From: a virus
Lineage: Duplodnaviria > Caudoviricetes
Strand: one strand, 5' to 3'
IMG/VR virus record: IMGVR_UViG_2671180615_000003
Location: 18,105 to 82,104 of that record
DNA length: 64,000 bases
Shown one piece after another: positions 2,003-64,000 of this stretch (within the stretch, counting starts at the first letter, position 1; each line of letters starts with the position of its first letter). A program made the position numbers and the translations under genes. The notes beneath the pieces were generated by a model that was not told the origin of the DNA, made no database searches, and saw only the letters and a list, made by a program, of their open reading frames with translations.

Positions 2003-2025
2003 AAAAAACCACCAGATGGTGGTTT
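2003..2025 (-). terminator. Rho-independent terminator after methylase
   Basis: AAAAAACCACCA-GA-TGGTGGTTT hairpin with U-tract on minus strand. Confidence 0.7.
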
Positions 2026-2887: not shown

Positions 2888-2911
2888 TGATATTCCAGTA
2901 ACCTTTTACAC

Positions 2912-2920
2912 ATTTTAACA
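2912..2920 (-). promoter_or_regulatory. Possible extended -10 promoter for the methylase
   Basis: TGtTAAAAT on minus strand ~25 bp upstream of the ATG. Confidence 0.4.
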
Positions 2921-2951
2921 GGTTCTATCGAACATGGCCATATTCATCAAA

Positions 2952-33427: not shown

Positions 33428-33443
33428 CGCGCCGGGCGCACCA
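33428..33443 (+). other. att core: 3' end of a tRNA (probably Arg)
   Basis: CGCGC-CGGGCGC-A-CCA = T-stem 3' strand + acceptor 3' strand + CCA, GC island in AT-rich DNA; no 5' half upstream. Confidence 0.75.
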
Positions 33444-33533: not shown

Positions 33534-34082
33534 TTAGTTAAATGAAATTCTATGAGCAATCCAACCATAAAAAAATTGCTCTTGGCCTGGATTACGTTCA
33601 CAGATTTCGATGTATCGCTGACCTTGCATAATATTTAAAACACGTAATAGAACTTTTTCACCATCTTTCCCACGTTTAGCCAAATAGATTTTTAAAGCAC
33701 CCAATGTAGCTGAACCATAAACTCCATCAACCACAAGATCTGACCAACCCGCCTTACCTTGGTTATTCAACAAATTTAAGGCACGCTGTAAAAGGGGTTT
33801 TGCAAACCCTATGCCGCAATTAACACCTGTATCTAAAAGTTCTTCAGCTACTACAGGAGAAATTAAATTTACTTGATCAAAGCGTGGAGCTGTCCAATAT
33901 TGTTTTTTATAAATAGACTTTGCAGTTTCAATTGGCAAATCTCGCATATTACCTTTGAATCCGTTTGTTCGAGCAACGGCTTCAGTAATTCCGTACTTTG
34001 TTGCCCCTCCCCGATCCGCTGGATTATTTACATAGCCGCCTTCGCGCTTAATTAACTCATCTAGATATTTTTCAATATTCAT
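33534..34082 (-). CDS. Endolysin, GH108 family with peptidoglycan-binding domain
   Basis: REGGYVNNPADRGGATKYGIT; FFYGW. Confidence 0.93.
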   Translation of the reverse strand: MNIEKYLDELIKREGGYVNNPADRGGATKYGITEAVARTNGFKGNMRDLPIETAKSIYKKQYWTAPRFDQVNLISPVVAEELLDTGVNCGIGFAKPLLQRALNLLNNQGKAGWSDLVVDGVYGSATLGALKIYLAKRGKDGEKVLLRVLNIMQGQRYIEICERNPGQEQFFYGWIAHRISFN

Positions 34083-34137
34083 TCCACTTTCCTTTAGAGT
34101 TGAAAACTACTCAGAGGTAGCACGTAAATTTGAATCA

Positions 34138-34359
34138 TTACTGTTGATTTGAATCTTCAGCTTCCTTTTTTTGTTTATTGTTAGATCCAAAATAGAAGGC
34201 AATCACAGCACTAGATAAACCAAGTAAAGTCCCTAGTGATACGTTTAATAGATCACGGTTTTTGTCTGGATATTCAATAAAGAACAACCCAAGAACACAG
34301 AGAAATGACATTGCAATAACCATGTACGCTAAATATGTCCGAGTATTTTCACTTTTCAT
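34138..34359 (-). CDS. Two-TM holin-like protein (start MKSENT)
   Basis: Two TMs, AFYFGS motif, GAGG RBS. Confidence 0.75.
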   Translation of the reverse strand: MKSENTRTYLAYMVIAMSFLCVLGLFFIEYPDKNRDLLNVSLGTLLGLSSAVIAFYFGSNNKQKKEAEDSNQQ

Positions 34360-34633
34360 CTTTATCCTCTTTGATGCGTAATTTGGCTTGCCCATACTGT
34401 TTTTTACGCAATTCATGAATCTCTTCTGAACGTTTTTCATCACGGCGCTTAAAGTAGAGATTTGTTAAGTAGGTTGCTACACCAATTAAGATTGAAATAA
34501 TTACAGCCCAATCAATTTTTCCAGCAATTCCAATCAACCCCCCGCCCACGACATAGCCATATGAAAATTTAGTTGCAGTAGCCGCAGCTGTACTTGCAGC
34601 TGCTTCAACCACACTATTTGTTTGGTCATTCAT
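34349..34633 (-). CDS. Holin (start MNDQ)
   Basis: TM segments, TNLYFKRR, charged C-terminus; GGAGG RBS. Confidence 0.75.
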   Translation of the reverse strand: MNDQTNSVVEAAASTAAATATKFSYGYVVGGGLIGIAGKIDWAVIISILIGVATYLTNLYFKRRDEKRSEEIHELRKKQYGQAKLRIKEDKDEK

Positions 34634-34800
34634 ACCTTCCTCCAAATCTTGGGTATAAAAAAGCACCCTAGTGGGTGACTATAAATAAATCGAAGCAGCC
34701 CGTTTTTGTGGTACAGTTCGATTAAATAAAGGTTTATATATTTCATTTTTTTATACAAAGAGAATCTGACTGACTCTTATGATCTGAATATTAGTTTGGC

Positions 34801-35667
34801 TTAGTAACCAGTAACGTCAATCATAAAAGTATTAATTGTATTCATACCTGCTTGAATGCCTGAAACTTTTCCGTCCATCAACAGACTTGAGGTTAACCCT
34901 CTAAAAATATAAACCCCATCTTGCTGTAGAACATAAGTATCGTAGATTACGCTACCACCAGAAGTAATAGCACCACTTCCTCCTGAACTAGTATATGTAT
35001 AGCTATTTTGAAACCTAATAGGAGTTTCTGCGATTGCCACAGCAAATTTTTTCCCCATAGGAGCCCGGCTAGATAAATACATAGGATCAGCATAGACGAA
35101 AGATGATGCTACATTTGCCCATCCAGGGAAATCTACATCCCTAGCTGGTTGGTTTTGAATAAAGTTAAGTACTTTTAGTGGCTTATAATTAGAATCAAAA
35201 ACTAATCTTTCATTTGCATCAAATAATTGTAATCCCATTGATGAGTGTGACAATTCTAAATCTTTAAAATTAAATTCATAAATTGTCAATTTATACGATT
35301 TGTCAGCTGGTGGAATTAAATCATTTGTAGGAATTCTAAAACTGATAAACATATCATTAGGCATAGAACTGCCTAGAAGATCTGCATCATAAGAATAAAT
35401 ATAGAAACGAAAACTAGGCTTTAAAACAATAGAATCCAGATCTCTGTGATTACCTACTGGATTCGGTGCAGGATATTCATCTACCCACCAAGAATCCATG
35501 GCAACTGCAAAAATAGAATCTTCTAAAGTAGGAGTATAATCAAAAAATTGATTACCCTGTTCACGAGCGATAGTATATTCCTGTTTTCCAACTAGAAACA
35601 TATTCCGATAGTTACCATCAATATGAATAACACCAGAATCATTTAAAATACGAAAGCCAACATCCAT
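34801..35667 (-). CDS. Tail-tip accessory protein downstream of J
   Basis: GFRILND.G...ID and GLQLFDA..RLVFDS..KPL motifs. Confidence 0.7.
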   Translation of the reverse strand: MDVGFRILNDSGVIHIDGNYRNMFLVGKQEYTIAREQGNQFFDYTPTLEDSIFAVAMDSWWVDEYPAPNPVGNHRDLDSIVLKPSFRFYIYSYDADLLGSSMPNDMFISFRIPTNDLIPPADKSYKLTIYEFNFKDLELSHSSMGLQLFDANERLVFDSNYKPLKVLNFIQNQPARDVDFPGWANVASSFVYADPMYLSSRAPMGKKFAVAIAETPIRFQNSYTYTSSGGSGAITSGGSVIYDTYVLQQDGVYIFRGLTSSLLMDGKVSGIQAGMNTINTFMIDVTGY

Positions 35668-36059
35668 TAGTAAATTCCATAGTGAAGATAAATATAGTTA
35701 TTGAACGCTGAAATATAAGCCGTTTCGAACTTGGCAGCTGACCAACTCATTGTTATACCATCAAAGATAACTGATACTTTAAAGGCTGAAAATTTAGCGC
35801 CTGGATAAAACCCACCACTATCATACCCCCAAAATCCATGCCAAAAATTTTGGCCATCTATCCACCCCGACTTTTTAGCTTCATTACCTTGAGTAAAATA
35901 GAATGGATTTCCTAAAGCCAAGTCAGGAACCACCAACTGCCCAGAAGTTTCATTTACGTTAGTGGGGATAGCAATTGTACCTAGAATCTTAGTCATACGA
36001 TCCGTGACATCTACTATAAGATTTCTTTGTTCATCAAAACACTGTAAACCTTGTGGCAT
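35667..36059 (-). CDS. Small tail-tip accessory protein
   Basis: MPQGLQCFD.....VDVTDR..KILG, ends YGIY. Confidence 0.7.
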   Translation of the reverse strand: MPQGLQCFDEQRNLIVDVTDRMTKILGTIAIPTNVNETSGQLVVPDLALGNPFYFTQGNEAKKSGWIDGQNFWHGFWGYDSGGFYPGAKFSAFKVSVIFDGITMSWSAAKFETAYISAFNNYIYLHYGIY

Positions 36060-36105
36060 ATAAACCTCCTAAAGAAATAATGGGCTAGTTAACTAACCCA
36101 ACCTT

Positions 36106-48654: not shown

Positions 48655-48702
48655 GCATAAAAAAGGCGCTGATAAGCGCCTATAACAAAATCTATTTTTT
48701 GA

Positions 48703-49353
48703 TTAAAGTTGGTCTTCAGGGTATTGACCTGCACTGATAATAAATCCACCAATTTCACGCTGACCATAAAGAATAGGTACAGGATTCCCCTGTGCCACTG
48801 TTGTTACCGCACTACCAAAACCTTTATTTGCACGGTTACCATCTTGATTTTGGTCTTGAGTAGTTGATGCCGAGGGCATTAACATACTTGAAATACCACC
48901 TACAGCCATACCTGCACCTGCACCGATTAAAGCAACTCCATAAGCAGAAGTTGTACCGCCAGTCATTACACCTGCAACAATCAAAACTGCTCCAAGAACT
49001 AACTGCAAGACTCCAGTATTTCCACCAGCACCTACCACACGAGGCACAATATGAATGGTGTCGGCTTGGGTATTCATATCTAACTGATCTTCAGAGATAT
49101 TATCTCCTGTAATCTGCTGTTTCGAATCTGCATCATAAATTGAGGAATGATTCTTTTTATATTTAGAATTTTTATTATTTAAAAATACGGCAAATTTAAG
49201 TCCAGACTCATGAGCACGTAACATAAAACTTTCAAAACCCGGAACTTGAACTGATAATGCACGCATAGCTTCACGAGTATTCACAACATCTAATTGAAAT
49301 TGCTTTCCAAATTTTTCTGCTAATACACCATATAGTTTGATTGTTTTTAACAT
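48703..49353 (-). CDS. Tail assembly protein I
   Basis: TIKLYG.L..KFG, IHIVPRVVG, QGNPVPILYG. Confidence 0.9.
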   Translation of the reverse strand: MLKTIKLYGVLAEKFGKQFQLDVVNTREAMRALSVQVPGFESFMLRAHESGLKFAVFLNNKNSKYKKNHSSIYDADSKQQITGDNISEDQLDMNTQADTIHIVPRVVGAGGNTGVLQLVLGAVLIVAGVMTGGTTSAYGVALIGAGAGMAVGGISSMLMPSASTTQDQNQDGNRANKGFGSAVTTVAQGNPVPILYGQREIGGFIISAGQYPEDQL

Positions 49354-49414
49354 GAGATTATCCTGGATTTAATAAAGGAGATATTCAACTGAATACCTCC
49401 TCTAAACTTTAAAA

Positions 49415-49603
49415 TTAGAGAGCTTCTGTTGGAGTTGGAGCTTCTTCAATCAAAATAGAGAATCCTGTTTCTCGATTATAAGTCAGGACTAAATTTTCAA
49501 GTGTCATACCTTTATTGAATTGAATCGCATTCACTTGATTACTAAATTGAGTTACGAGTTCTGCTTCCAGTACTGAAACTTGTTTTGCTGCTTGAGTTGC
49601 CAT
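49415..49603 (-). CDS. 62-aa hypothetical protein
   Basis: GAGGT RBS; hairpins on both sides. Confidence 0.6.
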   Translation of the reverse strand: MATQAAKQVSVLEAELVTQFSNQVNAIQFNKGMTLENLVLTYNRETGFSILIEEAPTPTEAL

Positions 49604-49672
49604 TGAAATTACCTCTTTAGAAAATAAAAAAACCTGCGAATGCAGGTTTTAGGGATTTTGCCTTTCGGCGGT

Positions 49673-50422
49673 TTAATTCATTTTTTTGTGTCTTAAAATC
49701 TTCACGGTTCGATCTAACCATTGTGGTCCATAAATCTCTCTTACAGACTTACGCCCATAAGGATGATGAAGAATTAAAGATGAACCAATACATGGTTCTG
49801 TCTGCTCTGTTTTAAGTTTTCCTTGGTCACCAAGCCAGATTAATGCATGATTAGGATGTTCCGTGCGTCCTACTCTACAAATCAACATGTCACCATATTT
49901 AGGTTGTGATACTTCATAAAAACCAGCTTGTTCATAATTTTCTAAATATAGTGAAGGGTGATCTTTTTGTTCCCACCAAGCATCTTCTCGATCAAAATCA
50001 ATTAATGAAATATTAAGTTCACGGCTATAGAAATCACGGATTAATGAATAACAATCTTGCCACCCATGATAATAATTACGTCCTACCAGAGGTGCTTTAT
50101 AACCAGATGGTTCATATATTTGAAAATCAATATTTGGATATGAACAAATCACCCAAGGTTTTTTATGTAACTCAATTTGTGTTAAGTCTAATTCGGAAGC
50201 ACGTGTAGTTCCATCTGGATGACTATGAACATACGCCTGAATTTCCCCCTGATCTTCAATCATAGTTAAATCTTCAGGATGGATTTCAAATTGATCATTT
50301 TGACTAGAAATATTACGGCAAGGAATATATTGGCGATCTACAATCACACCACAGCATTCAAGTGGGTAACATTCATCGGCATGTACCATAATTGCTTTTT
50401 TAATTTTTGCTGAAAGTTTCAT
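49673..50422 (-). CDS. Tail tip protein K (JAB + NlpC/P60)
   Basis: YPLECCG, HSHPD, DCYSL, PNHA. Confidence 0.92.
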   Translation of the reverse strand: MKLSAKIKKAIMVHADECYPLECCGVIVDRQYIPCRNISSQNDQFEIHPEDLTMIEDQGEIQAYVHSHPDGTTRASELDLTQIELHKKPWVICSYPNIDFQIYEPSGYKAPLVGRNYYHGWQDCYSLIRDFYSRELNISLIDFDREDAWWEQKDHPSLYLENYEQAGFYEVSQPKYGDMLICRVGRTEHPNHALIWLGDQGKLKTEQTEPCIGSSLILHHPYGRKSVREIYGPQWLDRTVKILRHKKMN

Positions 50423-50434
50423 AATCGACCTGCT

Positions 50435-51166
50435 TTACGACAAGTTTGAAGCTGGAAAACCACCGTAAGATAAAGGCTGGTTTTCACCAAAATGTAAGCG
50501 ACAATCTCGTAAACGACCTCCACACTTATCTTGGGCTGGGTCATCAGTAAGCTCACCTTTTTCTGTATACATTGCTGTCCCTGTATAACCACACTCTTCA
50601 CCTCGATAACGCCCTTTACAAGCCCATTCGCAAAGTGAAGTAATTTGCCTAACAGGAATTTCTCTTCCTTCATTATCTATCGGATTAGAAAGTTCAAATG
50701 TGACTTGCTGAGCATTTTCAGACGTTTTCTGTTCTATGTACCAAATCTGTTCTTTTGATTCATTTGCTGCATTTGTATTACCAGAAGAAAAGTTTGATGC
50801 ATCTAAATATTTAGCCATTGTGGTAATGACTTTTAATTTAGCATCAGCAAAATCTTTGAATTGTAAACAGTAAGCCGAAACAGCTCCTTGAATACCATTA
50901 ATATTATTTGCAATTGCTAAGGATGGAGTAGAGGCTTTTCCATCTGAACGCAATTCTAATTCAGATACTTTAATTGCTAATGGTTCATAGGTTTCACCTT
51001 GCCAAATAATATTTGGCTTCCACTCACCATTATCTTTAAAACTAGCATGGCCATGAAACCTTAAAATACCCGCACCAAGATTCCTTGCATCTAATTCATA
51101 AAGAGTAATTAGTCCATCTACTTCAAGTTTCTGAAAATCACTGACGAGAGACATATTTATTTCCAT
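50435..51166 (-). CDS. Minor tail protein L
   Basis: C.W..YRGEECGY, DKC....DC Fe-S cysteines, GGFP. Confidence 0.92.
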   Translation of the reverse strand: MEINMSLVSDFQKLEVDGLITLYELDARNLGAGILRFHGHASFKDNGEWKPNIIWQGETYEPLAIKVSELELRSDGKASTPSLAIANNINGIQGAVSAYCLQFKDFADAKLKVITTMAKYLDASNFSSGNTNAANESKEQIWYIEQKTSENAQQVTFELSNPIDNEGREIPVRQITSLCEWACKGRYRGEECGYTGTAMYTEKGELTDDPAQDKCGGRLRDCRLHFGENQPLSYGGFPASNLS

Positions 51167-51207
51167 AAAAAAAGCCCCTTTTCAGGAGCTTATAAGTGAA
51201 TAAGTAT

Positions 51208-51549
51208 TTAAGGATAATAAACTTGGGTAAATGTTGTACTAATACGCCACCAACCACCACCTAAATGTACAGGTTGATATTCACCCACTTTTACACGTAC
51301 TTCACCATCTAAAGGTGAGTCCCAAAGAAATGATTTTGAACCTTTATGTAAGTCAAAAAATTTTTTAATCTCTAAAATATTTTTTTCGGTATCAGTCTTA
51401 GTATATTGCCACTGACTAGAACAATTATTAATACCAACACTTACGTTTTGTTCGTAACCATCCCCAAAATTTGCATTTAAGACATTAAATGTATTTTTTT
51501 GGGAATTACCATCTAAATCTTGATTCCAAGTAAACTTAAGGGCACTCAT
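51208..51549 (-). CDS. Minor tail protein M (distal tail)
   Basis: FGDGYEQ, H.G.KSFLW. Confidence 0.9.
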   Translation of the reverse strand: MSALKFTWNQDLDGNSQKNTFNVLNANFGDGYEQNVSVGINNCSSQWQYTKTDTEKNILEIKKFFDLHKGSKSFLWDSPLDGEVRVKVGEYQPVHLGGGWWRISTTFTQVYYP

Positions 51550-51749
51550 AAAATATTCCTAAAATATACAGAACAGCTATATAAATACTTATTCACACAA
51601 TATTTAAATGATAAATAATTTATTATTTGCTCTATTAAAATACAACTTAAAATATAAAATACCAAATGAGATTTATTACAATTATTTAAACAAAAAAATA
51701 AGATATATTTCAAAAATCTAAAAAATTAAAATAATAGTATTAAAAATAA

Positions 51750-51848
51750 AAAAGCTAACTTTAATTTTAAAGTTAGCTTTTAATGTATATCGAATTCATA
51801 TTTCGACCATCTTAGTTACACTATACTTTAGTTTTCAGAAAAAAGAAA
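51750..51848 (-). promoter_or_regulatory. Second copy of late promoter plus terminator inside tail operon
   Basis: TTTCTT-17-TATAGT with TTCTGAAAA and TAAGATGGTCG as at 59084-59128; 15-bp-arm hairpin 51750-51781. Confidence 0.7.
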
Positions 51849-51947
51849 CTATAAATTAATGAAGATCATTTAAAATATTTAATTCAAATTATGTCAAATT
51901 AAATAATCTCTTGAATCTATTATTTTTAAAAACCAAGTTGGTACCTT

Positions 51948-55577: not shown

Positions 55578-55702
55578 ACTTATCTCCAGGCAAAAAAAAC
55601 GACCTTTCGGTCGTCAATGATTAAATTATGATTTAACTAGATTTCAAGTTACTGCTTTGCTAAATTGGGCATACTTTACAAATACTAGAGTTAATCAAGG
55701 CA

Positions 55703-56581
55703 ATGAAACAAAAATTATTACTGCTATCTTCATTTTTTTTAATTAACCATTCTTTTGCAGTAACAATAAATGATTTAGAAACAAAATCGATATTCCGTAC
55801 ATTTTATCCATCTATGTTTCATGCTACTTTTGAAAGTAAAGATGAAGAAGAAATTAAACTTCCCCATATTGGAATCGAAGAAAATAGCCAAGAATATTTA
55901 GCCATACTCCATCCCGCGGAAGTCTTTAAAAATAACTCTGGTGAAGATAGATATTTAATTTTTGTTGAAAAACGTGAAATTGGTAAAGCAGTAAGTGAAA
56001 TTGAAAAAGGAAAATTTGTCGAAAAAAGTTCGAAATTCTATGAGTTTAGTGAAGGTTGTCATGCCTGTGAAGGTAATGCTGACCTCATGATTTTTAAGAA
56101 AAATAATCAAGGTAATTTTGATTTAGTCTCTAAAAATAGAGAGTCATACACCCCACCAAGTCAATATGGAATTATTAATTTAAATATTAAAAATCTAGCT
56201 TCAAGAATTATCAAGATAGGTAAAAATGATATCGGTTTCTTCGACGACTCATATACCTATTCAAATGATGGCGGATCAGATACTTTACTACATCTTATTA
56301 AATTAGGTGATGATGCTATTCAAGGATACAATATTGATATTGTTGAAGGAAGTAATGAAGGCTCTTACGACCAAAACTCACCTTTAAATTATAGCTTTAA
56401 GGGTGAATATAGAGTTAAAATGGATCAACCTTATTTAAAAAGTTACCCTATTGAAATTAAATTCAAAGGAGATATTTATGATGAAAAAACAGATAAATTT
56501 GTTAAATATAATAAAATAAAAACATATCAATTTAATAATTCTAAAAATACATACAGTATTACATCAGAAAAAAGTTATTAA
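55703..56581 (+). CDS. Secreted/periplasmic protein with CxxC, antisense moron
   Basis: Signal peptide (HSFA|V), GCHAC motif. Confidence 0.85.
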   Translation: MKQKLLLLSSFFLINHSFAVTINDLETKSIFRTFYPSMFHATFESKDEEEIKLPHIGIEENSQEYLAILHPAEVFKNNSGEDRYLIFVEKREIGKAVSEIEKGKFVEKSSKFYEFSEGCHACEGNADLMIFKKNNQGNFDLVSKNRESYTPPSQYGIINLNIKNLASRIIKIGKNDIGFFDDSYTYSNDGGSDTLLHLIKLGDDAIQGYNIDIVEGSNEGSYDQNSPLNYSFKGEYRVKMDQPYLKSYPIEIKFKGDIYDEKTDKFVKYNKIKTYQFNNSKNTYSITSEKSY

Positions 56582-56588
56582 TTTATTT

Positions 56589-56620
56589 TAAAAAAGCACT
56601 TTTAGAAAAGTGCTTTTTTA
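56589..56620. terminator. Bidirectional terminator
   Basis: TAAAAAAGCACTTTT-AG-AAAAGTGCTTTTTTA between convergent genes. Confidence 0.8.
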
Positions 56621-56631
56621 ATTAGTTATAA

Positions 56632-57260
56632 TTAGCGTAACTTTTTCATTTTATTTATACGCTCTTGTTCAAAAGTAAGAGCCGGTGGTTTATCAAAGTG
56701 TGGTAAATAATCATAAATTTGAAGCCCTTTTACACCCTTAGATGACGCAAACATGAGTTTCATTTCTGCCATTACTTCTTCTAAACGTAAACCTATGTTG
56801 AGGCTACCTCTTTTTTGTCGGTAAGCTGCCCAGGTTCTAATTTCTTTGTGGGTAAAGCTTGTTCTGACTTCTTCGATTGATCTTGAGGTTGCGATCGCGA
56901 TTTCGATGAGGAGTTCTTCTCTGTCGTCGATTTCAATGTCTGCTTTCCCATGACATTAATTTCAACAATTTTAACCCAAATGATATCAACTAATGCTTGG
57001 CTAAAGTGTAATCGTACTTCATCCTCAGTGAAAGTAGGAACACCATGCTCATCTGTAATACAACTTGCTAAAATACCTGCTAAAGCCTCTTTATTTTCTC
57101 CGTATGCTTTCATATTTGCTACAGCAGATTGATAGTTAAAAGGTTTAATATAGGTTGTAAACTCTGATTCTTCACCATTTACCAGAACTTGAACTGTTAC
57201 TTGTTCTGGTTTACCAAGCAAAATGCCTGATTTGATTTGATCCGCACTTAGTTTCTTCAT
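56632..57260 (-). CDS. Tail chaperone GT, -1 frameshift product
   Basis: GGGAAAG at 56943-56949; -1 frame open 106 codons (WAAYRQKRGSLNIGLRLE...) to TAA 56632. Confidence 0.82.
56793..57260 (-). CDS. Tail assembly chaperone G
   Basis: Between tube and tape measure; ...VMGK slippery site. Confidence 0.85.
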   Translation of the reverse strand: MKKLSADQIKSGILLGKPEQVTVQVLVNGEESEFTTYIKPFNYQSAVANMKAYGENKEALAGILASCITDEHGVPTFTEDEVRLHFSQALVDIIWVKIVEINVMGKQTLKSTTEKNSSSKSRSQPQDQSKKSEQALPTKKLEPGQLTDKKEVAST

Positions 57261-57323
57261 TTTTAATTTTCCAAAAGAAAATAAGCCTGCTAAGCAGGCT
57301 TATTAATAATGCTAAAAAAAACC

Positions 57324-57791
57324 TTAAACGGTTTTCAATGTATCGAAAGCTGGGGTTTGGCGTTTCATTGGAATAGTATGGTTTACCAATGAGTCTTTAT
57401 CGAAAATTGGTGGACCTTTTCGTAATTGAGCTTGGAATTGAGTCCAAGAACGACCTTGCGGTACTGTAACAACATCACCTTGTAAAGTTGGTGCAGCAGT
57501 ACCATCGGCCCATCCAACAAAAACATCAACTTTTGCTTTATTTTGAGCCAAATTCAAAATCGTAACATGGGTTTCATTTTCAGGATCAGTATTGATTTTC
57601 AAACTACCTTCACCTGGTTTAACTAAACCATATTCTGAAGTTGAAGATTCACGCTCTTCCATACATGTTGTTTCAATTTCAGTAACACTATCATCGCCTA
57701 CCGACAACTCAGTAATACATTCAATTTTAGTTAATACAGCTGGTGAACCATGTTTTACCCATGTTTCAGTACCTTGTGTTAATACGCCCAT
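57324..57791 (-). CDS. Major tail tube protein
   Basis: LTQGT, IETTC.E....EYGL..PG, VGWADG..APT. Confidence 0.88.
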   Translation of the reverse strand: MGVLTQGTETWVKHGSPAVLTKIECITELSVGDDSVTEIETTCMEERESSTSEYGLVKPGEGSLKINTDPENETHVTILNLAQNKAKVDVFVGWADGTAAPTLQGDVVTVPQGRSWTQFQAQLRKGPPIFDKDSLVNHTIPMKRQTPAFDTLKTV

Positions 57792-57954
57792 GATTGGACT
57801 CCTTTTTTAACGACGAAAAAAACCTCGCGTTTTGCGAGGTCATAAAATTTTAGAATTTGGGAAGTTTGTCTAATGGAGTACTACATATGTGCAATATATA
57901 AATTTAGTATTAATTACACATAGTACCTAGATCTTAGTTTTCTAATAAACTGTA

Positions 57955-58137
57955 TTACAATTTATTTATTAATTCACTTCTAAGCATCTTAGCCATTAAT
58001 TCTTTAGCATTTTTGGGAGAAGTTGCTTTTTTTTCAACGTCATCCACAATTTGACTAATTTTTTTATCATCTGATAAATTTTTTAGTTTCTTTTGTAGAG
58101 TAGACAAGCCATTCATATTCATAGATATACCCTCCAC
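57955..58137 (-). pseudogene. Truncated HK97 gp10-like protein (N-terminal part only)
   Basis: MNGLSTLQKKLKNL resembles family N-terminus; 60 aa, lacks PVDTG and YA...E.G motifs. Confidence 0.45.
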
Positions 58138-58179
58138 AATAAAACCATTTATTGCATGATCTCTTAATAGTAACTATTT

Positions 58180-58407
58180 TTACTTTAAATAGTTATTTTC
58201 ATTAGATTTACGACGGGCCTGCCTTAACTTATTTTGATTAGTTAATTTTTTATTTTTTTCTAATGCCTCTGAATTAATAAATTTAACTAAGTTAAGTTTC
58301 AATAAATCTTCCGCACTGTTTAAATCAAGTTCAATTACCTCACCGGCTATATGAACAATTCGATTATGCATACATGTTGTTAAAAACTGGACTTTTACGT
58401 TTGACAT
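58180..58407 (-). CDS. Small protein of the type normally found after a major capsid gene
   Basis: KVQFL.......AGEVIELD...AEDLL..NLV pattern. Confidence 0.55.
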   Translation of the reverse strand: MSNVKVQFLTTCMHNRIVHIAGEVIELDLNSAEDLLKLNLVKFINSEALEKNKKLTNQNKLRQARRKSNENNYLK

Positions 58408-58498
58408 ATTTTTTCCAATAAAAAAAGAGCTAGACTTTAAATCTTGCTCTTCTAATAACTAAGATAATATAAAATACTTTTACCAATTGATATAAATA

Positions 58499-58723
58499 TT
58501 ATTTTTCTTTTGGTTTTGAATCTAAGTAAGAAATAATATTTTGATCAATTGCTTGATCTTCAAAATACTTTTGAAGTAATTTATTATTCTGCTCTATAGC
58601 AGAATAAATAAGAGTATCTTTATTTTCAACCTTTTGAATCAATGTGTTGTTCTGCTTTACCAACTCTTCCATCACTTCGAGTAACTTTGAGCAACAGTAA
58701 TTTTGTTCTTCGTTCAAGTTCAT
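58499..58723 (-). CDS. Hypothetical coiled-coil protein
   Basis: ORF overlapping upstream small ORF. Confidence 0.5.
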   Translation of the reverse strand: MNLNEEQNYCCSKLLEVMEELVKQNNTLIQKVENKDTLIYSAIEQNNKLLQKYFEDQAIDQNIISYLDSKPKEK

Positions 58724-58775
58724 TATATTTACTCTCTAACCATTTACGTCTTTTAGCACAACCCGTACAACTCAT
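58626..58775 (-). CDS. Small CxxC protein (MSCTGCAKRR)
   Basis: AAGG RBS before ATG; first ORF of late operon. Confidence 0.55.
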   Translation of the reverse strand: MSCTGCAKRRKWLESKYNELERRTKLLLLKVTRSDGRVGKAEQHIDSKG

Positions 58776-59051
58776 AATAAATACCTTTCCAGACTTATTA
58801 CTAATAAAAAATAAAGCCATATCAACTTAATTTGATATGGCTTTATATGCTGCATTTTTACAGCAAAACTTAAATAACCCTTTAAAAAATATTTAAAACT
58901 TTGAATTCATATAAAAATATTTAAAAAACATAGATTTTACATTTTCCATAAATAAAGAACAATTTCTCTAAAAATTATTATCTATGTAAAAATTTAATAT
59001 ATGAATTATTCTTATAGATACGATAATAAAAATTAAAAAACAACTTAAACT

Positions 59052-59128
59052 AAAAAGTCGCACTACAAATTAAATCTGCAATACGACCATCTTAAATATA
59101 TAATACTCTTTTTTTCAGAATAATGAAA
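59052..59128 (-). promoter_or_regulatory. Late promoter pR'-like and tR'-like terminator of element 2
   Basis: TTTCAT-17-TATTAT just after Q-like stop; GGTCGTATTGCAGA/TTTGTAGTGCGACT hairpin + U-tract. Confidence 0.7.
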
Positions 59129-59131
59129 ACC

Positions 59132-59692
59132 CTATAATTGTAACTCTTTGTAAGTATCTTTCCGATATTCACGTATAGTATCTTCTGCCTCCGCAATAGC
59201 AGATTCAATTGCAAGCTGCATTAACTTCTCATACGGTTTCCATGTCATTCTATAAACATCTGCTGACATCTTATAAGCCGTAATCCCTGCATAATAAAGT
59301 CTCCCCTGAGCAGTAAAGTTTTTTTCAAGATCAGGGTTTAGAGAAAAATCAATAACCATACGAGCAATAAGCCATGCCAAATGGTGAATAGCAATATATT
59401 CAGGTTCTCTTTTTTTATCATTTTCAGCTTCTTTTAACATAATTAAAGCTAAATGATTTCTTATAAACTTATAGTCCTCTTCTGATTTTCCATTATAAAT
59501 AATTAATGAAGACACTGATTTAGCTAATTGAGTCTCCATTTTTGCAATTGCTCCTAATCTATCTTGATAATTAATAGCGTCTTTATTAGGAGTATGTCCA
59601 ACTCTTGAAAAGTCCAATGATTGTGCTGTTAAGCCTCGGGATAACCACTGAAACTGAGTAAACTGATTCATAATACTAATATCAATATTCAT
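59132..59692 (-). CDS. Late gene regulator (Q-like antiterminator)
   Basis: Last early gene, followed by promoter-terminator; YRMTWKPY C-terminal motif. Confidence 0.65.
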   Translation of the reverse strand: MNIDISIMNQFTQFQWLSRGLTAQSLDFSRVGHTPNKDAINYQDRLGAIAKMETQLAKSVSSLIIYNGKSEEDYKFIRNHLALIMLKEAENDKKREPEYIAIHHLAWLIARMVIDFSLNPDLEKNFTAQGRLYYAGITAYKMSADVYRMTWKPYEKLMQLAIESAIAEAEDTIREYRKDTYKELQL

Positions 59693-59897
59693 TCATTAAC
59701 CCTCTCAAAATATACGCAATCACAATCATTACTAACATCGAAAAAATAAAACCCAATCCAAAGGCAAAACCTCTTCGCATCCATTCAACCACTGCCCCAT
59801 GGTTATATTCACCGACCAACCATTGCATCAAAAACTTAACAGCAAAATAGAAGGCAAATGAGGCAACTATTACTAAAATAATTTGATCAGTTTTCAT
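59682..59897 (-). CDS. Two-TM small membrane protein
   Basis: Hydrophobic, coupled. Confidence 0.65.
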   Translation of the reverse strand: MKTDQIILVIVASFAFYFAVKFLMQWLVGEYNHGAVVEWMRRGFAFGLGFIFSMLVMIVIAYILRGLMNEY

Positions 59898-60124
59898 TAT
59901 ATTAAGCCCTCAGTACATTTAATTATTAATAAGCGCCCATAAAGTTCTATACCTAATAAGCATTTAAAGTTCTTTTTCTGTAATTTCAGTTCATAAGCAA
60001 AATTTTTATTACTCTTGATAGGTAACTCTACATTCGTCAAATCTTTAAAATTACTTAGAATCTTTTTGTGATTAATTCTAACATCCAGAGTTTGACAATA
60101 ATGCTGTTCAACAAGATGATTCAT
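59897..60124 (-). CDS. Hypothetical protein
   Basis: Coupled ORF. Confidence 0.5.
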   Translation of the reverse strand: MNHLVEQHYCQTLDVRINHKKILSNFKDLTNVELPIKSNKNFAYELKLQKKNFKCLLGIELYGRLLIIKCTEGLI

Positions 60125-60599
60125 TATTCACCCCTAAATTTTCAAGTGACTGTCTTAAAACATTCCAATCAAGTAATGAAGCTTCTGATCGCCCATGATA
60201 AACCCGATAAAGCTGATGAGCTGTTAATGCATAACCAGAATTAGCTGCTAAGAAATCCCAAGATTGTCCGAACTTATTAACAAATATTTTTAATAAAGCT
60301 TGTTGGTCATTTAAATATGCTGTCGTTTCTTTAATTGATGAATGAATCAATAAGTTTTTTGATGTAACACCCGAGTCCATATAACTTTTGCCGTTATACT
60401 CATCTTTAATAGACTTCTCCATCCCCTGTTTCATATAGCCTTGATTCTCATTCTTGTTTTTAATCAAGTTAATTTGATTACCTTGAGCCACCCATTCTGC
60501 TAATTGGATAGCGAGCTCATTACGCTGTTTAGACTTAAGAAAAACATTTGAATAACTCATTGAATAATCATGTTTAGTAAGTTCCAATTTAGCATTCAT
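60108..60599 (-). CDS. Hypothetical protein (start MNAKLE)
   Basis: AGGAG RBS, ATGA overlap with loader gene. Confidence 0.65.
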   Translation of the reverse strand: MNAKLELTKHDYSMSYSNVFLKSKQRNELAIQLAEWVAQGNQINLIKNKNENQGYMKQGMEKSIKDEYNGKSYMDSGVTSKNLLIHSSIKETTAYLNDQQALLKIFVNKFGQSWDFLAANSGYALTAHQLYRVYHGRSEASLLDWNVLRQSLENLGVNNESSC

Positions 60600-61372
60600 A
60601 GTTTTGCTCCTAAACGAGTATCTGCCCATACACATTCAATTTGAGTTAATCCCCCATGTTGAAACCGAGACCAAAGGCGATCACCTAAATCAGAAATCAA
60701 GCCATGAATAATTGTGCCTATCCGATCCTTAGTATCATTAAGCGCAAAATTTGAAATAAGCATTGTTGCTTTATCTGCGTCATAACGTGCATATAAAACC
60801 TTATGAACCACTTCTTTACGTTTTTCGCGATCATGCAAGCCATACTCATCAATAATGAGTAAGTCATATTCTGTATAACGATAAATAGTATTTTTTTCAC
60901 TATCACCCTGACGATACCAAGCTCCCATGATGTCATTTGCTAACTCTTCACTGGTGATATAACGAGCTGTTTTTCCATTTTTAAGTAATGTTCTAGCCGT
61001 AGCACATGCAAGATGTGTTTTACCGGTCCCAGTTTTTCCCACCATAACCAGATTCGTTACCTGTCCTTTCATAATTCGTTCGGCGTAAGCTGCACAACTA
61101 TTAAAAGCAATAATTTGTCCTGGTAATTCACAGCGATAATTATGAAAACCTGAGTTTTTATGACGTATAGGCAACATTCCACCAGCTAAATGATTTTCAT
61201 AAACCATTTTTCTAACGGTTTTACTATGCTTGAGATTAGACTCAGTTACTTTATTAACAGCACATGTTGGACAGATTTCTAAACCAGCAATCTTGACCTT
61301 TTTCTCCAAATGAATAGAGCAAATATTTAACCCTGGTTCAAAAGAGTGATTAATTTTTGTCATTACATTCAT
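60596..61372 (-). CDS. DnaC/IstB-like helicase loader ATPase
   Basis: C..H/CPTC zinc site, GKTGTGKT, LLIIDE, LISN. Confidence 0.92.
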   Translation of the reverse strand: MNVMTKINHSFEPGLNICSIHLEKKVKIAGLEICPTCAVNKVTESNLKHSKTVRKMVYENHLAGGMLPIRHKNSGFHNYRCELPGQIIAFNSCAAYAERIMKGQVTNLVMVGKTGTGKTHLACATARTLLKNGKTARYITSEELANDIMGAWYRQGDSEKNTIYRYTEYDLLIIDEYGLHDREKRKEVVHKVLYARYDADKATMLISNFALNDTKDRIGTIIHGLISDLGDRLWSRFQHGGLTQIECVWADTRLGAKL

Positions 61373-62262
61373 ACAAATTTCCCTCCCAACTCCAATGGCT
61401 TAATACTTTCGTCATATTCTGGCTGTTGGTATTCAAAAGCTTGATTTACATTTCCATGTATTCTTGAATTTAAATAAATTGACTTCGTTGATTTAGTTTT
61501 TGAAGCTTTTAACTTTTCAAACTTTTCAAATATCCATTGAGCAAACTTGCTGTGTCTTTGACTATCAGTTAGATATCGCGAAGTTTCATGGTGAGCATTG
61601 AAATTGCTCAAATGAAATTCAAAGTCATCCATATATAAGATTTCTTGCACTTGCTGAGAGTATTTAGTCTTTTTCAAATAAGTAGCGAGATGATTTAAAT
61701 CTGGTCTCCAATCTTCTGATTTCATGACGTTCGTTAAAATTACTTGAGAGAGAGTTTTTTCCTGTTCCTGTTCTTGCTTCTGTTCTTGGCTTAAAAGAAC
61801 CTTGTTAGGGGCTTCTTTCTCTACATAGTGGTTATTCTTTCCTTCACGTCGATGCGTCATACAAAAAGCTTCAAAGTATTTATTATAAAAATCTTCTAAA
61901 AATGGATTTGACGGTAATGAGTCATAATCCTTTTGAATACCTTTACAACGGTTATCACTCTCCTTCAAAGATTCAGCAACCTGAAAACGAGCCATTTCAT
62001 GTACCCAGATCATTTCTGAAACATTGTCATAACTACAGAAACCTACTTTACATGCCCATTCAAGCCCCTTCTCTGCTCCTTCTAGCCCCAAACCAGTTTC
62101 ATGAGCTATATATAAAAGAGGCATATAATAAAGACCAAGCATATTTGCATGTGGACTGGTTATTAAATACATAGCCACGATAATGGACTCGGGACACTCT
62201 CGTAATTGTTTACCAGTTATACCTGTCCAGAAGTGTGGAGAAACCTTCCCATAATCACGCAT
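61369..62262 (-). CDS. Phage replication initiator
   Basis: MRDYGKVSPHFW, YLITSPHANMLG, QEQKQEQEQE linker; upstream of DnaC-like. Confidence 0.85.
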   Translation of the reverse strand: MRDYGKVSPHFWTGITGKQLRECPESIIVAMYLITSPHANMLGLYYMPLLYIAHETGLGLEGAEKGLEWACKVGFCSYDNVSEMIWVHEMARFQVAESLKESDNRCKGIQKDYDSLPSNPFLEDFYNKYFEAFCMTHRREGKNNHYVEKEAPNKVLLSQEQKQEQEQEKTLSQVILTNVMKSEDWRPDLNHLATYLKKTKYSQQVQEILYMDDFEFHLSNFNAHHETSRYLTDSQRHSKFAQWIFEKFEKLKASKTKSTKSIYLNSRIHGNVNQAFEYQQPEYDESIKPLELGGKFV

Positions 62263-62389
62263 TGGAATTTAACTCCTTTAAAAGAGTTTTAAAGGAATTT
62301 AAATGGTAAAAGATTTTATTTTCCTTACCCTTACAATTAATCGATTTGTTTTCGCCACAACATTGTGATAAATTTATTTTCAAATTCAT
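62255..62389 (-). CDS. 44-aa ORF, probable remnant of pre-initiator gene
   Basis: AGGA RBS; MNLKINLSQ... positional counterpart of 26401-26730. Confidence 0.35.
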   Translation of the reverse strand: MNLKINLSQCCGENKSINCKGKENKIFYHLNSFKTLLKELNSNA

Positions 62390-62449
62390 TGTGATTTCCT
62401 AATTAAATGAATTAACTAAAAAGTCTGATTTGCCGATCAGGCTTTTTGC

Positions 62450-62580
62450 TTTATAAATCAAGCATCCAAATTTTCTTTTCACATTTTTGATAAAACTTAT
62501 TTAAAAAATCTCTCCTTAAAACTAATCTCAACCATTTATAAATCCTTAAAAAAATTAGTCTCTACCTACATCTTTACTGT
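62450..62580 (-). pseudogene. Eroded cII slot
   Basis: No cII-size ORF after cro, but the post-cII hairpin AAAAGCCTGATC..AATCAG is kept (62418-62447, cf. 26765-26792). Confidence 0.4.
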
Positions 62581-62585
62581 GAAGA

Positions 62586-62828
62586 TTAACTCGCAACTTT
62601 CTTCTCAAACTCTTTTAGTGTTGGGCAAAGTTGATATGCTTTAAATCTCTCATTAGTTACATACTCAGCCCGCAAAGCAATTTTTTCAGACATTTGACTT
62701 TTACCCGTTAACCAAGCATTAACCGAAGGCTGCTTAATTGAAAGAGCTTGTGCCGTTTTTGTTTGACTCCCGAAAAAGCTCACCAGTTGGATGTAGATTG
62801 AAATGTTATCTATACTCATAACTATCAA
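62586..62828 (-). CDS. Cro-like repressor
   Basis: FGSQTKTAQALSIKQPSVNAW HTH; L.P C-terminus. Confidence 0.88.
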   Translation of the reverse strand: MIVMSIDNISIYIQLVSFFGSQTKTAQALSIKQPSVNAWLTGKSQMSEKIALRAEYVTNERFKAYQLCPTLKEFEKKVAS

Positions 62829-62846
62829 ACCCCTATCTTAATAGTT

Positions 62847-62911
62847 AATTTATAGTTTTAACTATCAAATGTCAATAGTTAAGGTTATTTGATTTTAATA
62901 GTTTTAACTAT
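62847..62911. promoter_or_regulatory. OR operators (ATAGTT-N2-AACTAT) and pR
   Basis: Perfect sites 62852 and 62898, imperfect 62875; TTGACA at 62870-62875 (minus) with TAAATT 17 bp on. Confidence 0.8.
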
Positions 62912-62944
62912 AAAATTAGGTGCAACGATTTTAAGGTTAATATC

Positions 62945-63616
62945 ATGTCTGATTTAGCAACTCGTCTAAAAGCGGCTCGCTTAAAAGCAGGAAAGAGTCA
63001 ATATGAAGTCGCTGAAGCGGTTGGTATTAAACAACCGACATATCAAGCGCTGGAAACAGGAAAAAGTTTAAAGTCAGCATTTCTTCCTTTAATTGCAAAA
63101 TATCTAGGAGTAGATGCTTATTGGTTAACAACTGGTGAAGCTGAGGATTCTTTTAGTGAAGATGATTTGGTAAAACCAGTGGTAATAGATAAAGAAAATA
63201 ATCAATATGTATGGATAGAAGTAGCTGAGGCTAATTTTTCATGTGGCACAGGTGAATCAATTGAATTTCATTTTGATGCGATTAATGGAAAAATTCCTTT
63301 TCCATCTTCTTTTTTCAAGGAAAAACATGTAGCTCAAGATTGTATGCGCATTATCAAAGCTAAAGGCGATAGCATGATGGACTATATAAAAGATGGCGAT
63401 CTTGTAGGTATAGATATATCTCAAACACAAATTATCGATGGTGAAATATATGCTGTATATTTTGCTGGTGAAGGTATGCTAAAACAGATATTCAAAGAAG
63501 AAGATGGGTCTTTAATTCTCCACAGTCTTAACGAAAAATTTAGAGATCGGCGCGTAACAGAAGAAAATGGTAAAAACTTTAGAGTTATGGGTCGACAGTT
63601 CTGGAGAGCTGGATAA
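62945..63616 (+). CDS. cI: CI repressor with S24 autopeptidase
   Basis: HTH; SCG cleavage site; GDSM and LKQ catalytic motifs. Confidence 0.93.
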   Translation: MSDLATRLKAARLKAGKSQYEVAEAVGIKQPTYQALETGKSLKSAFLPLIAKYLGVDAYWLTTGEAEDSFSEDDLVKPVVIDKENNQYVWIEVAEANFSCGTGESIEFHFDAINGKIPFPSSFFKEKHVAQDCMRIIKAKGDSMMDYIKDGDLVGIDISQTQIIDGEIYAVYFAGEGMLKQIFKEEDGSLILHSLNEKFRDRRVTEENGKNFRVMGRQFWRAG

Positions 63617-63641
63617 CCCCTCCATACACATGAAGTTTTGT

Positions 63642-63670
63642 AAAAAAGCCACAATTAATGTGGCTTTTTT
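63642..63670 (+). terminator. Terminator after cI
   Basis: AAAAAAGCCACA-ATTAA-TGTGGCTTTTTT. Confidence 0.8.
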
Positions 63671-63688
63671 ATTAGCAGCAAGAAAGTA

Positions 63689-63751
63689 AAAGTTAAAATT
63701 ATTATTTTAATAGTTAAAACTATTGACTCAATTAATAGATAAAACTATATT
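63689..63751 (+). promoter_or_regulatory. OL operators and pL
   Basis: ATAGTTAAAACTAT 63710, ATAGATAAAACTAT 63735; TTGACT-17-TATATT at 63723-63751. Confidence 0.8.
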
Positions 63752-63814
63752 CAACTATATAATCTTTGAATCGTATTCAGAACAAGTCCAACTGCAACTT
63801 AATAAGAGGTAATT

Positions 63815-64000
63815 ATGAAAGAAGATATAACACACAACTTGAACTCCCCTCACAAGTCTAGCCATAAACACAATTTATGGTTCTTAAATTTTAAAACTAA
63901 TATTTTGATTACAATAAAAATGTTAGGCTTCTTATCAATAGGATTAATCATTTGGTTTATCGCAGCTGTGATTACAGTGAAATTTATTACTACCACCTAA
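63815..64000 (+). CDS. Small membrane protein, first pL gene
   Basis: GAGGT RBS, one TM segment. Confidence 0.6.
   Translation: MKEDITHNLNSPHKSSHKHNLWFLNFKTNILITIKMLGFLSIGLIIWFIAAVITVKFITTT

Follow-up and report, generated by a model that had tools for sequence, protein, structure and literature searches.

How should a lambda-type tail locus without a head be read: as a prophage in decay, or as a phage tail domesticated into a bacteriocin? The question is raised by a 64,000-nt stretch of DNA, here called the window, which corresponds to bases 18105-82104 of the 82,104-nt virus record IMGVR_UViG_2671180615_000003. Two phage-derived elements lie next to each other in the window, prophage 1 (~1-33336) and a head-less element (33430-64000) that has its late genes on the minus strand and its CI repressor gene on the plus strand. 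An earlier, sequence-only reading of this DNA had proposed that the second element is an F-type tailocin of Acinetobacter, a flexible-tail bacteriocin inducible by DNA damage, rather than a decaying prophage. Our analysis points in the same direction. The element is probably an SOS-inducible F-type tailocin organised like rhizoviticin, and we infer particle formation, killing and induction from its genes. Claims made at the level of sequence are well supported, namely that the element is head-less, grounded, of a single origin, under selection, and found at a tRNA site in several lineages.

The missing head module and the chromosomal site

Read from the CI end, and with genes labelled by PHROG and Pfam scans, the element comprises CI, a cro-like gene, genes for DnaD-like and DnaC-like proteins, three small open reading frames (ORFs), a phrog_5656 gene that is the candidate late-gene regulator, and a 1340-nt junction. 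After the junction come the tail tube gene, the tail assembly chaperone gene G, an opposite-strand 292-aa gene, the tape measure gene (TMP), M, L, K, a 62-aa ORF, I, J, two post-J genes and the lysis genes (Table 1). The junction, from the regulator end (59132) to the tube start (57791), holds only four small ORFs, none of which matched any head or packaging family in a PHROG scan. The sequence-only reading had described a gap of about 1.3 kb without head genes, and had listed the tail and lysis genes as open; the gap is as described, and gene content and positions agree with that reading in PHROG and Pfam scans. Across 33430-64000, PHROG and Pfam scans and tblastn revealed no terminase, portal, protease, capsid, connector or tail terminator, and the set of genes that marks an intact prophage (terminase, portal, capsid, connectors and integrase) is not present.

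The absence of a head module sets the element apart from most of its relatives. Relatives of the tube protein were collected with 10-kb flanks, giving 13 loci from species genomes and 80 from IMG/VR, and upstream head genes were counted in the 61 related loci in which 5.7 kb or more precede the tube. At least three head/connector families were found upstream of the tube in 54 of these loci and none in the remaining seven. The seven (L014-L020, from the IMG/VR records G001-G007) are exactly those collinear with the window, and together with it they form the eight head-less loci compared here. The division follows the identity of the tube: all eight loci at 97% or above are head-less, and all nine at 95-96% have heads. 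In G009 (locus L026), the nearest head-bearing relative, the interval from regulator to tube is occupied by genes for small and large terminase, portal, protease, major head protein, phrog_33217, Ad1, Hc1, Neck1/tail-completion and tail terminator. When ten G009 head/connector proteins were compared by tblastn with the whole 82-kb record, only two N-terminal fragments were found, at ~58228-58407 and 58024-58128.

These fragments and their surroundings are readable as the scars of deletions. Two overlapping small ORFs at the regulator side of the junction sit upstream of the small terminase gene in G009, in the head-bearing cousin G008 and in other Acinetobacter relatives. Scar 1 is the N-terminal third of phrog_33217, which in G009 comes after the capsid gene; it measures 75-91 aa among the loci and has a ratio of nonsynonymous to synonymous divergence (dN/dS, computed here pairwise by the Nei-Gojobori method) of 0.32-0.61. 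Scar 2 resembles the N-terminal 35-50 residues of Neck1/tail-completion in the window and in five of the seven sister records (tblastn, 32-34% identity, E 5e-4 to 4e-3), and for both scars together dN/dS is 0.26-0.61. DNA similarity to head-bearing relatives starts at ~57822-57829, within the hairpin that precedes the tube gene. Because scars of phrog_33217 and Neck1 remain beside the ORF pair that normally precedes the small terminase gene, the junction is read as the product of at least three separate deletions, one from small terminase to major capsid, one of the two adaptors, and one of Neck1/tail-completion with the tail terminator. No tail gene was lost. The integrase and the early-left operon appear as a fourth loss, and the element is best read as descended from a temperate siphophage of Acinetobacter whose head module was of the HK97 type and whose tail was of the lambda/HK022 type.

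A head module might also have lain just beyond the window, an outcome that the sequence-only reading had named as a refutation. The record is trimmed at gene ends, and its right edge (window 64000) falls 384 nt past CI; the right flank was therefore read in the sister record G001, which is 96% identical to the window over 54545-64000 and continues for ~0.5 kb before reaching ABC-transporter ATPase and permease genes. That ~0.5 kb contains a weak similarity (E 0.076) to codons 1-39 of the prophage 1 integrase, with a 24-nt DNA match at that position. No head genes, early-left operon or working integrase were found on the CI side in G001 up to the host ABC-transporter genes. A search for the 20-nt 3' end of the tRNA, allowing up to 4 mismatches, gave no copy on that side in G001, G004 or G005. 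That the element is grounded, that is, fixed in place without a working integrase or excisionase, is well supported by this reading of the flanks.

The site itself can be recognised across the genus. In G001-G005 the endolysin end abuts tRNA-Arg(CCG) and a 209-aa host gene, with the ABC-transporter genes at the other end. In six related Acinetobacter species genomes, these host genes likewise flank tRNA-Arg(CCG); four of the six are empty, with ~200 nt between tRNA and transporter, and the other two carry different inserts of 6.6 kb and 12 kb (L157 in G099 and L158 in G048). The gap between tRNA-Arg(CCG) and the transporter genes is a hot spot for integration. The window, G006 and G007 each have an additional prophage integrated at this tRNA gene. 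In the window, the 14-nt copy of the tRNA 3' end at the left limit of the element adjoins the prophage 1 integrase and marks an attachment site common to prophage 1; the 82-kb record lacks the complete tRNA-Arg that would be expected where prophage 1 ends on its far side.

Descent and selection of the head-less loci

The seven sister loci are collinear with the window from ~63990 to 33430 at 88-96% DNA identity and share its head-less junction. The eight loci vary mostly in the post-J cassette, in distal J and, in three of them, in the middle of the TMP. Beyond these records, at least half of the words sampled from the junction (57300-59700) were present in 15 public runs. Seven of these runs are possible sources of the window DNA, and the remaining eight represent eight studies, of which two also include possible source runs; in runs X16-X20, only 5-13% of the sampled junction words were present. 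A near-identity search of a phage collection with 55500-59800 gave no match, and a metagenome scan with the L protein gave three close loci, apparently those of G001, G005 and G003, and nothing new.

The sequence-only reading had named a strain-specific locus in neutral decay as an outcome that would speak against it, and the comparison of related genomes that it called for shows a different picture. The junction occurs in seven other IMG/VR records as well as the 15 runs. CI, cro, both replication genes, the regulator, tube, G, TMP, M, L, K, I and J are open in all eight loci. For tube, M, L, K and I combined, dN/dS is 0.052-0.167 (median 0.099), at synonymous divergence (dS) of up to 0.42 and with dS above 0.05 in 27 of the 28 pairs. 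In a neutral control with random substitution at 5% or 10%, none of 500 trials left the TMP frame open, and none of 300 left the first 1400 codons of J open. The scars and the 55703-56581 gene have relaxed dN/dS (0.26-0.75), and the method can therefore detect relaxation where it exists. The description of the locus as something other than a decaying prophage is supported by these values.

Descent was examined with a maximum likelihood tree of five concatenated tail genes, which groups all eight head-less loci in a single clade (support 100/100) apart from the head-bearing clade; the stem of the head-less clade is long, at 0.26 changes per site. The identity of M, L, K and I to the window is 82-100% among head-less loci and 68-82% in the nearest head-bearing relatives. 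It is well supported, as judged from these sequences, that the head-less form had a single old origin and that purifying selection has maintained it in several lineages. Among G001, G002 and G003 (L097, L094, L095), DNA identity of the host flank gene is 72-84%, a difference of 16-28%, and the element is therefore present in at least three well-separated host lineages; the G001 flank gene is 97% identical to that of two species representatives. Between G001, G002 and G003 the element differs by only 4-12%, compared to 16-28% for the host flank gene, and the head-less, integrase-less element seems to have moved between species. This spread may have come about by recombination at conserved flanks in transformable hosts, which is one possibility.

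Several observations weigh against a tailocin. Some of them bear on function. Run X15, although labelled RNA-Seq, resembles a genome assembly (981 contigs, 3.96 Mb, one of 43.8 kb across the locus), and no transcription is shown by it. For the late regulator, assignment to the Q type depends on a structural match whose E-value is not significant. A different holin-like gene (129 aa) is present in G006 and G007. In addition, without a terminator and tail-completion proteins, tail length may be uncontrolled. F-pyocin clusters are described as having no tail terminator (preprint 10.1101/2021.02.16.431561), and in the 2026 structure of the F2 pyocin the terminator is encoded elsewhere and particles without it are uncontrolled in length and still kill (PMC13455828); for this reason, the missing U- and Z-type genes are no argument against a working tailocin.

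The remaining observations would also fit a defective prophage that is retained for reasons unrelated to its tails, with intact-looking tail genes that are passengers refreshed by recombination with related functional phages. Functions that might explain retention are CI immunity, the small membrane protein next to CI, the moron on the opposite strand, and regulated lysis that releases DNA or vesicles. CI, the replication genes and the regulator are at least as constrained as the tail genes. The dN/dS of the head-less tail core (median 0.10) is about three times that of two head-bearing cousins (0.036, at dS of ~1.0), which could reflect mild relaxation or merely the usual time-dependence of dN/dS. 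Between the window and G002, dS varies several-fold by module, from 0.08 for G to 0.51 for CI and the lysin; recombination therefore occurs, and some alleles could be imported. The TMP middle, distal J and post-J cassette are swapped among loci. The endolysin is intact in seven of the eight loci, the G007 copy being frameshifted after ~residue 30 (G007:25781-26346; L101, L102). Finally, the element is not fixed in the genus, as a search of 247 species-representative genomes of Acinetobacter, a set that may lack the genomes nearest that of the window, gave no match to the junction at more than 72% identity. Despite this list, we consider retention as a defective prophage unlikely. No head-bearing donor of alleles is in sight, because the nearest head-bearing M, L, K and I are too distant, at the identities given above, and the head-less loci form a fully supported clade of their own. 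About 25 kb of tail frames have stayed open in all eight loci at dS of up to 0.42, compared to none of the neutral trials for the TMP and the first part of J, the three separate deletions hit only head and connector genes, and the true passengers of the same locus are relaxed.

A different role would be that of a tail donor or hitch-hiker that depends on a helper, its tails being capped and joined to the capsids of a co-resident prophage or a capsid-forming island, or the element itself being mobilised by the helper. The tandem arrangement invites this idea, since a second, integrase-bearing prophage lies at the tRNA site in three of the eight records (window, G006 and G007), the neighbour in G007 has a related head module and a tail terminator 32-63% identical to those of G009, and the integrase of prophage 1 is 89% identical to that of head-bearing G008. 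The lower divergence of the element relative to host flanks likewise suggests transfer between species. We nevertheless judge helper dependence to be quite improbable. The element has neither the terminator and tail-completion proteins that make tails joinable nor a small terminase or integrase, no prophage adjoins it in five of the eight records, and the head and connector genes of prophage 1 belong to unrelated families; flank recombination in naturally transformable hosts would explain interspecies spread equally well. There is scarcely any probability that the head module was instead lost to contig mis-joining or provirus trimming. The window record is indeed trimmed and stops shortly after CI, but the junction recurs in seven independent records, carries recognisable deletion scars, and is bridged by contigs in all four runs examined, among them contigs of 43,779 and 67,282 nt, which extend from J across the junction to CI.

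Proposed mode of action and related systems

For an SOS-inducible tailocin, homology and sequence suggest the following course. DNA damage would activate RecA, upon which the S24-domain CI would cleave itself and the rightward early operon would be switched on, yielding Cro, the late regulator and the two replication proteins (DnaD- and DnaC-like), which may in turn amplify the locus in place. The regulator would then drive two late promoters with a common motif, each followed by a terminator-like hairpin in the style of Q-type antitermination; the first transcript would supply tube, G/GT and tape measure, and the second M, L, K, I and J together with the variable post-J pair, holin and endolysin. 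Flexible tails without heads, ~190 nm long (a length scaled from lambda), would assemble on the tape measure, and holin and endolysin would lyse the producer and release them. By analogy with F-type tailocins, the giant variable J fibre would bind neighbouring cells and lead to their killing.

The closest known counterpart in organisation is rhizoviticin of Allorhizobium vitis VAR03-1. It is presented as a proven F-type tailocin from a head-less prophage beside a tRNA gene, the locus keeps a LexA-family repressor, an integrase remnant and replication genes needed for production, and its authors read it as an early stage on the way from prophage to tailocin (PMC10811719). The Acinetobacter element likewise combines a tRNA-side head-less locus, a LexA-family repressor, replication genes and an integrase remnant with intact tail and lysis genes, and its retention of replication genes places it closer to rhizoviticin than to a pyocin. 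The two are likened by organisation, not by sequence, since the rhizoviticin host is an alphaproteobacterium. Rhizoviticin is described as a chimera of two phages, whereas we found no evidence of a chimera in the Acinetobacter element; the latter has a Q-like regulator, two late promoters and a fibre of 2855-4563 aa. Activity has been proven for rhizoviticin and is predicted for the Acinetobacter element.

The resemblance to F-type pyocins lies in the tail genes. The order of tube, two chaperones, tape measure, M, L, K, I, J and variable accessory genes is alike, and the pyocin cluster likewise has no terminator, so that the pyocin-like order proposed in the sequence-only reading was confirmed. 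The best Protein Data Bank (PDB) matches of the tube, L and the N-terminus of J are chains of the F2 pyocin (25vd/25vf), which rank above lambda L and J. In P. aeruginosa, the pyocin locus lies between trpE and trpG and is controlled by PrtN/PrtR. The Acinetobacter element has a different context and control: it lies between tRNA-Arg(CCG) and ABC-transporter genes, with its own CI/cro, replication genes and candidate Q-type regulator. Its lysis genes come after the tail genes, and its J is 3.5 times longer than that of the F-pyocin (4182 vs 1204 aa).

Among phages, the nearest systems are head-bearing Acinetobacter siphophages (the records behind L021-L029, for example G009 and G008), which have the same order of early, regulator, tail and lysis genes and are similar to the window in tube (95-96% identity), endolysin (88%) and regulator (71-76%). 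They also have the late-promoter motif after the regulator and, in the G009 type, after the TMP. In contrast to the element, they carry a full head/connector module between regulator and tube, and G008 additionally has a 416-aa integrase and an early-left operon. More distant head-bearing relatives, vB_AbaS_TRS1 and vB_AbaS_qsb1, were matched via the regulator gene. The order V, G/GT, H, M, L, K, I, J is that of lambda and HK022, and HK022-type major tail proteins are the best named phage matches of the tube, at 33% identity. Lambda and HK022 are whole viruses with distant sequences; in the Acinetobacter element the lysis genes follow the tail genes, and homologues of U and Z are absent.

No tailocin of Acinetobacter was found in the literature within our reach, which excluded subscription journals and older work on Acinetobacter bacteriocin typing. 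In PMC10967457 and PMC12473004 the word tailocin occurs only within a cited E. coli title, PMC6193963 treats bacteriocins in general terms only, and Acinetobacter is absent from the PhageTAILor preprint. We regard the locus as a moderately likely F-type tailocin candidate, of an early-stage rhizoviticin type, in a genus for which we found none reported. F-type tailocins with solid evidence are few; those encountered in the literature searched are F-pyocins, monocins, rhizoviticin and efagins. Research on tailocins treats them both as antibacterials of narrow range and as drivers of competition between strains, and Acinetobacter includes a priority hospital pathogen. The locus offers a concrete candidate with eight natural variants, whose differences lie mostly in the fibre and post-J cassette; in known tailocins, killing range is set by variation of this kind. 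The locus also appears to catch the route from virus to weapon in mid-course, with head, connector and integrase genes gone, scars still readable, and repressor, replication and late control under selection; as early genes are still selected after the loss of head and integrase, the element can show which phage functions a tailocin still needs. We speculate, and hold this more tentatively, that it is the first tailocin of Acinetobacter and the Moraxellaceae and a 'living fossil' that runs a full lambdoid programme (CI/cro, in-place replication and two-promoter Q antitermination), with a killing range set by the giant J with its cassette exchange and by the hypervariable post-J pair, and with spread by flank recombination rather than infection.

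Individual features of the locus

Table 1. Features of the head-less element, listed from the CI end, with positions in the window
Feature	Position	Strand	Basis
61-aa ORF with C-terminal hydrophobic segment, co-oriented with CI; last gene of record	63815..64000	+	ORF listing
CI-type repressor, helix-turn-helix and LexA-like S24 domain	62945..63616	+	Pfam PF01381 (HTH_3), PF00717 (Peptidase_S24); phrog_4
Divergent CI/cro control region, putative operators	62829..62944	.	Repeated ATAGTT-N2-AACTAT-type palindromes
Cro-like small repressor	62586..62828	-	phrog_35
DnaD-like replication initiation or helicase-loading protein	61369..62262	-	phrog_12196, phrog_1701; dN/dS 0.05-0.22
DnaC-like helicase loader	60596..61372	-	phrog_50; dN/dS 0.03-0.14
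Three small early ORFs (175, 75, 71 aa)	59682..60635	-	ORF listing; vary among sister loci
Candidate late-gene regulator, 'Q-like', 186 aa, last gene before late promoter	59132..59692	-	phrog_5656
Late-promoter motif copy 1, then at once a hairpin with T run	59056..59130	-	TTCTGAAAA..GTATTAT..TAAGATGGTCG
Terminator-like hairpin	58811..58846	-	Hairpin scan
Two overlapping small ORFs, 49-aa CxxC peptide and 74-aa coiled-coil-like peptide	58499..58775	-	ORF comparison
Deletion scar 1, 75-aa remnant of post-capsid gene	58180..58407	-	phrog_33217 profile positions 1-48 of 102
Deletion scar 2, 55-aa ORF	57955..58122	-	N-terminus vs Neck1/tail-completion residues ~3-52 of head-bearing relative
GC-rich hairpin and T run, 30 nt before tube start	57821..57841	-	Hairpin scan
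Tail tube, 155 aa	57324..57791	-	PF16460, E 8.9e-41
Tail assembly chaperones G (56793-57260) and GT	56632..57260	-	PF16459; T-frame homologues
Opposite-strand 292-aa gene, moron slot between GT and TMP	55703..56581	+	ORF listing
Tape measure (TMP), 1209 aa	51948..55577	-	phrog_1506, E 1.9e-146
Late-promoter motif copy 2 with own hairpin, TMP-M gap	51745..51848	-	Motif search
Tail-tip M	51208..51549	-	PHROG (phrog_14, 18, 30, 32 for M, L, K, I block)
Tail-tip L	50435..51166	-	PHROG; best PDB match F2-pyocin 25vf_7, E 3.5e-66
Tail-tip K	49673..50422	-	PHROG; dN/dS 0.03-0.08
62-aa ORF	49415..49603	-	Between K and I
Tail-tip I	48703..49353	-	PHROG
J-type central fibre, 4182 aa	36106..48654	-	phrog_31, 2589, 11678
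Two post-J genes, 130 and 288 aa	34801..36059	-	phrog_2427, phrog_4062
Holin	34349..34666	-	PHROG; lysis cassette 33534..34666
101-aa membrane protein	34138..34443	-	Lysis cassette
Endolysin, GH108 and PG_binding_3	33534..34082	-	PHROG, Pfam; dN/dS 0.07-0.12
14-nt copy (13/14) of tRNA-Arg(CCG) 3' end	33430..33443	+	Left limit of similarity to sister records

The control region was described in the sequence-only reading as having a cleavable CI, intact operators and an intact late promoter downstream of a Q-like gene, and most of this was upheld. In addition to its S24 domain, CI carries a GDSM serine motif and a C-G candidate cleavage site, and its dN/dS is 0.03-0.05 at dS of 0.5-0.63 in comparisons with six loci. 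Operator-like palindromes are repeated as described, with three direct-repeat families and ten inverted pairs in 211 nt of the CI/cro region, and are best called putative operators. The Cro-like repressor is 88-91% identical in all seven sister loci. The 61-aa ORF next to CI has homologues at 61-98% identity in six of the seven sister records and no PHROG or PADLOC match; it may encode a membrane protein expressed in lysogeny. For the small early ORFs, no Pfam or PADLOC family was found, and Atlas searches gave unnamed clusters only.

The 'Q-like' gene has the position expected of a Q gene, directly upstream of the candidate late promoter and its terminator-like hairpin; membership in the Q family by sequence was not recovered, as the protein matched 0 Pfam families. 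It also had no PADLOC match and no PDB profile match at E up to 1. Its dN/dS is 0.02-0.08. In the AF2 model (mean pLDDT 77.8, with residues 1-40 of low confidence), a single PDB match, lambda Q (7ubn_Q), exceeds a TM of 0.5 (TMq 0.54, prob 0.93), at E 0.48, and in the Atlas neighbour cluster the Q family PF06323 is found in 11% of members. That the phrog_5656 gene encodes a late regulator, probably Q-like, is moderately supported.

The late-promoter motif has the general form TTCTGAAAA..GTAT(A/T)(G/A)T..TAAGATGGTCG. Copy 1 is present in all eight head-less loci and also 3' of the same gene in head-bearing G008 and G009. Copy 2 is present in all eight as well, and also in G009 and in four of ten other loci scanned. 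A second late promoter was at one point taken as a speciality of the head-less lineage; this was dropped when a looser search found a copy in G009-type phages, from which it follows that copy 2 is ancestral and not specific to a tailocin. Between regulator and tube, three terminator-like hairpins were found in 1.7 kb, compared to 0.4 expected from shuffled sequences, and the layout of motif and three hairpins fits Q-type antitermination.

The tail genes form a complete non-contractile set (tube, frameshifting chaperones, tape measure and tip complex), and no sheath gene or homologue of U or Z was found in the element. The tube protein is full-length when compared with 30 homologues of 86-178 aa, has a dN/dS of 0.01-0.055, and matches the F2-pyocin chain 25vd_A best in the PDB (E 2.6e-14). 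Expression of GT is suggested by a slip heptamer, GGGAAAG, in X_XXY_YYZ phase at 56943-56949, with 103 open codons after it in the -1 frame, a stretch similar to the T parts of relatives; the slip site and open frame are kept in all eight head-less loci. The G/GT slip site of lambda is identical. The TMP is open at 1209-1290 aa in all eight loci, with dN/dS of 0.10-0.14 in the four collinear ones, and its middle part (52343-54545) is exchanged in three. For L, dN/dS is 0.03-0.06 (0.18 against G001).

J consists of a conserved N-terminal tip domain and a long, modular and variable fibre, the distal part of which is exchanged between loci. Residues 8-1074 match the F2-pyocin fibre 25vf_A with E 1.9e-246, compared to 6.1e-132 for lambda J. 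The gene is open in all eight loci at 2855-4563 aa, and its first 1000 codons have dN/dS of 0.07-0.19. In G008 (L122-L124), the ORF listing after 37600 shows no long J-type frame downstream of gene I. The post-J pair is present in all eight loci (114-154 aa and 225-288 aa) with a common layout and common N-terminal motifs and little sequence identity; neither gene has a Pfam or PADLOC family, and Atlas searches returned unnamed clusters only. In head-bearing G009, J is followed directly by the holin gene, with no post-J cassette. No spanin was recognised in the lysis region.

The opposite-strand 292-aa gene had no PHROG, Pfam or PADLOC match and fell into unnamed Atlas clusters only. It occurs in all eight head-less loci, truncated in G006 and G007, with dN/dS of 0.43-0.75; in relatives, the slot between GT and TMP holds other genes.

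Prophage 1, which extends left from the window to ~base 6290 of the 82-kb record, looks complete. It encodes a large terminase, portal, head morphogenesis protein, major capsid, tail terminator (phrog_179) and tail proteins, as well as a CI-type repressor, a DNA methyltransferase and a 416-aa integrase (32086-33336). Its head genes are unrelated to the head module deleted from the head-less element, and its tail region at window 2024-4661 on the minus strand contains ORFs of 287 and 569 aa.

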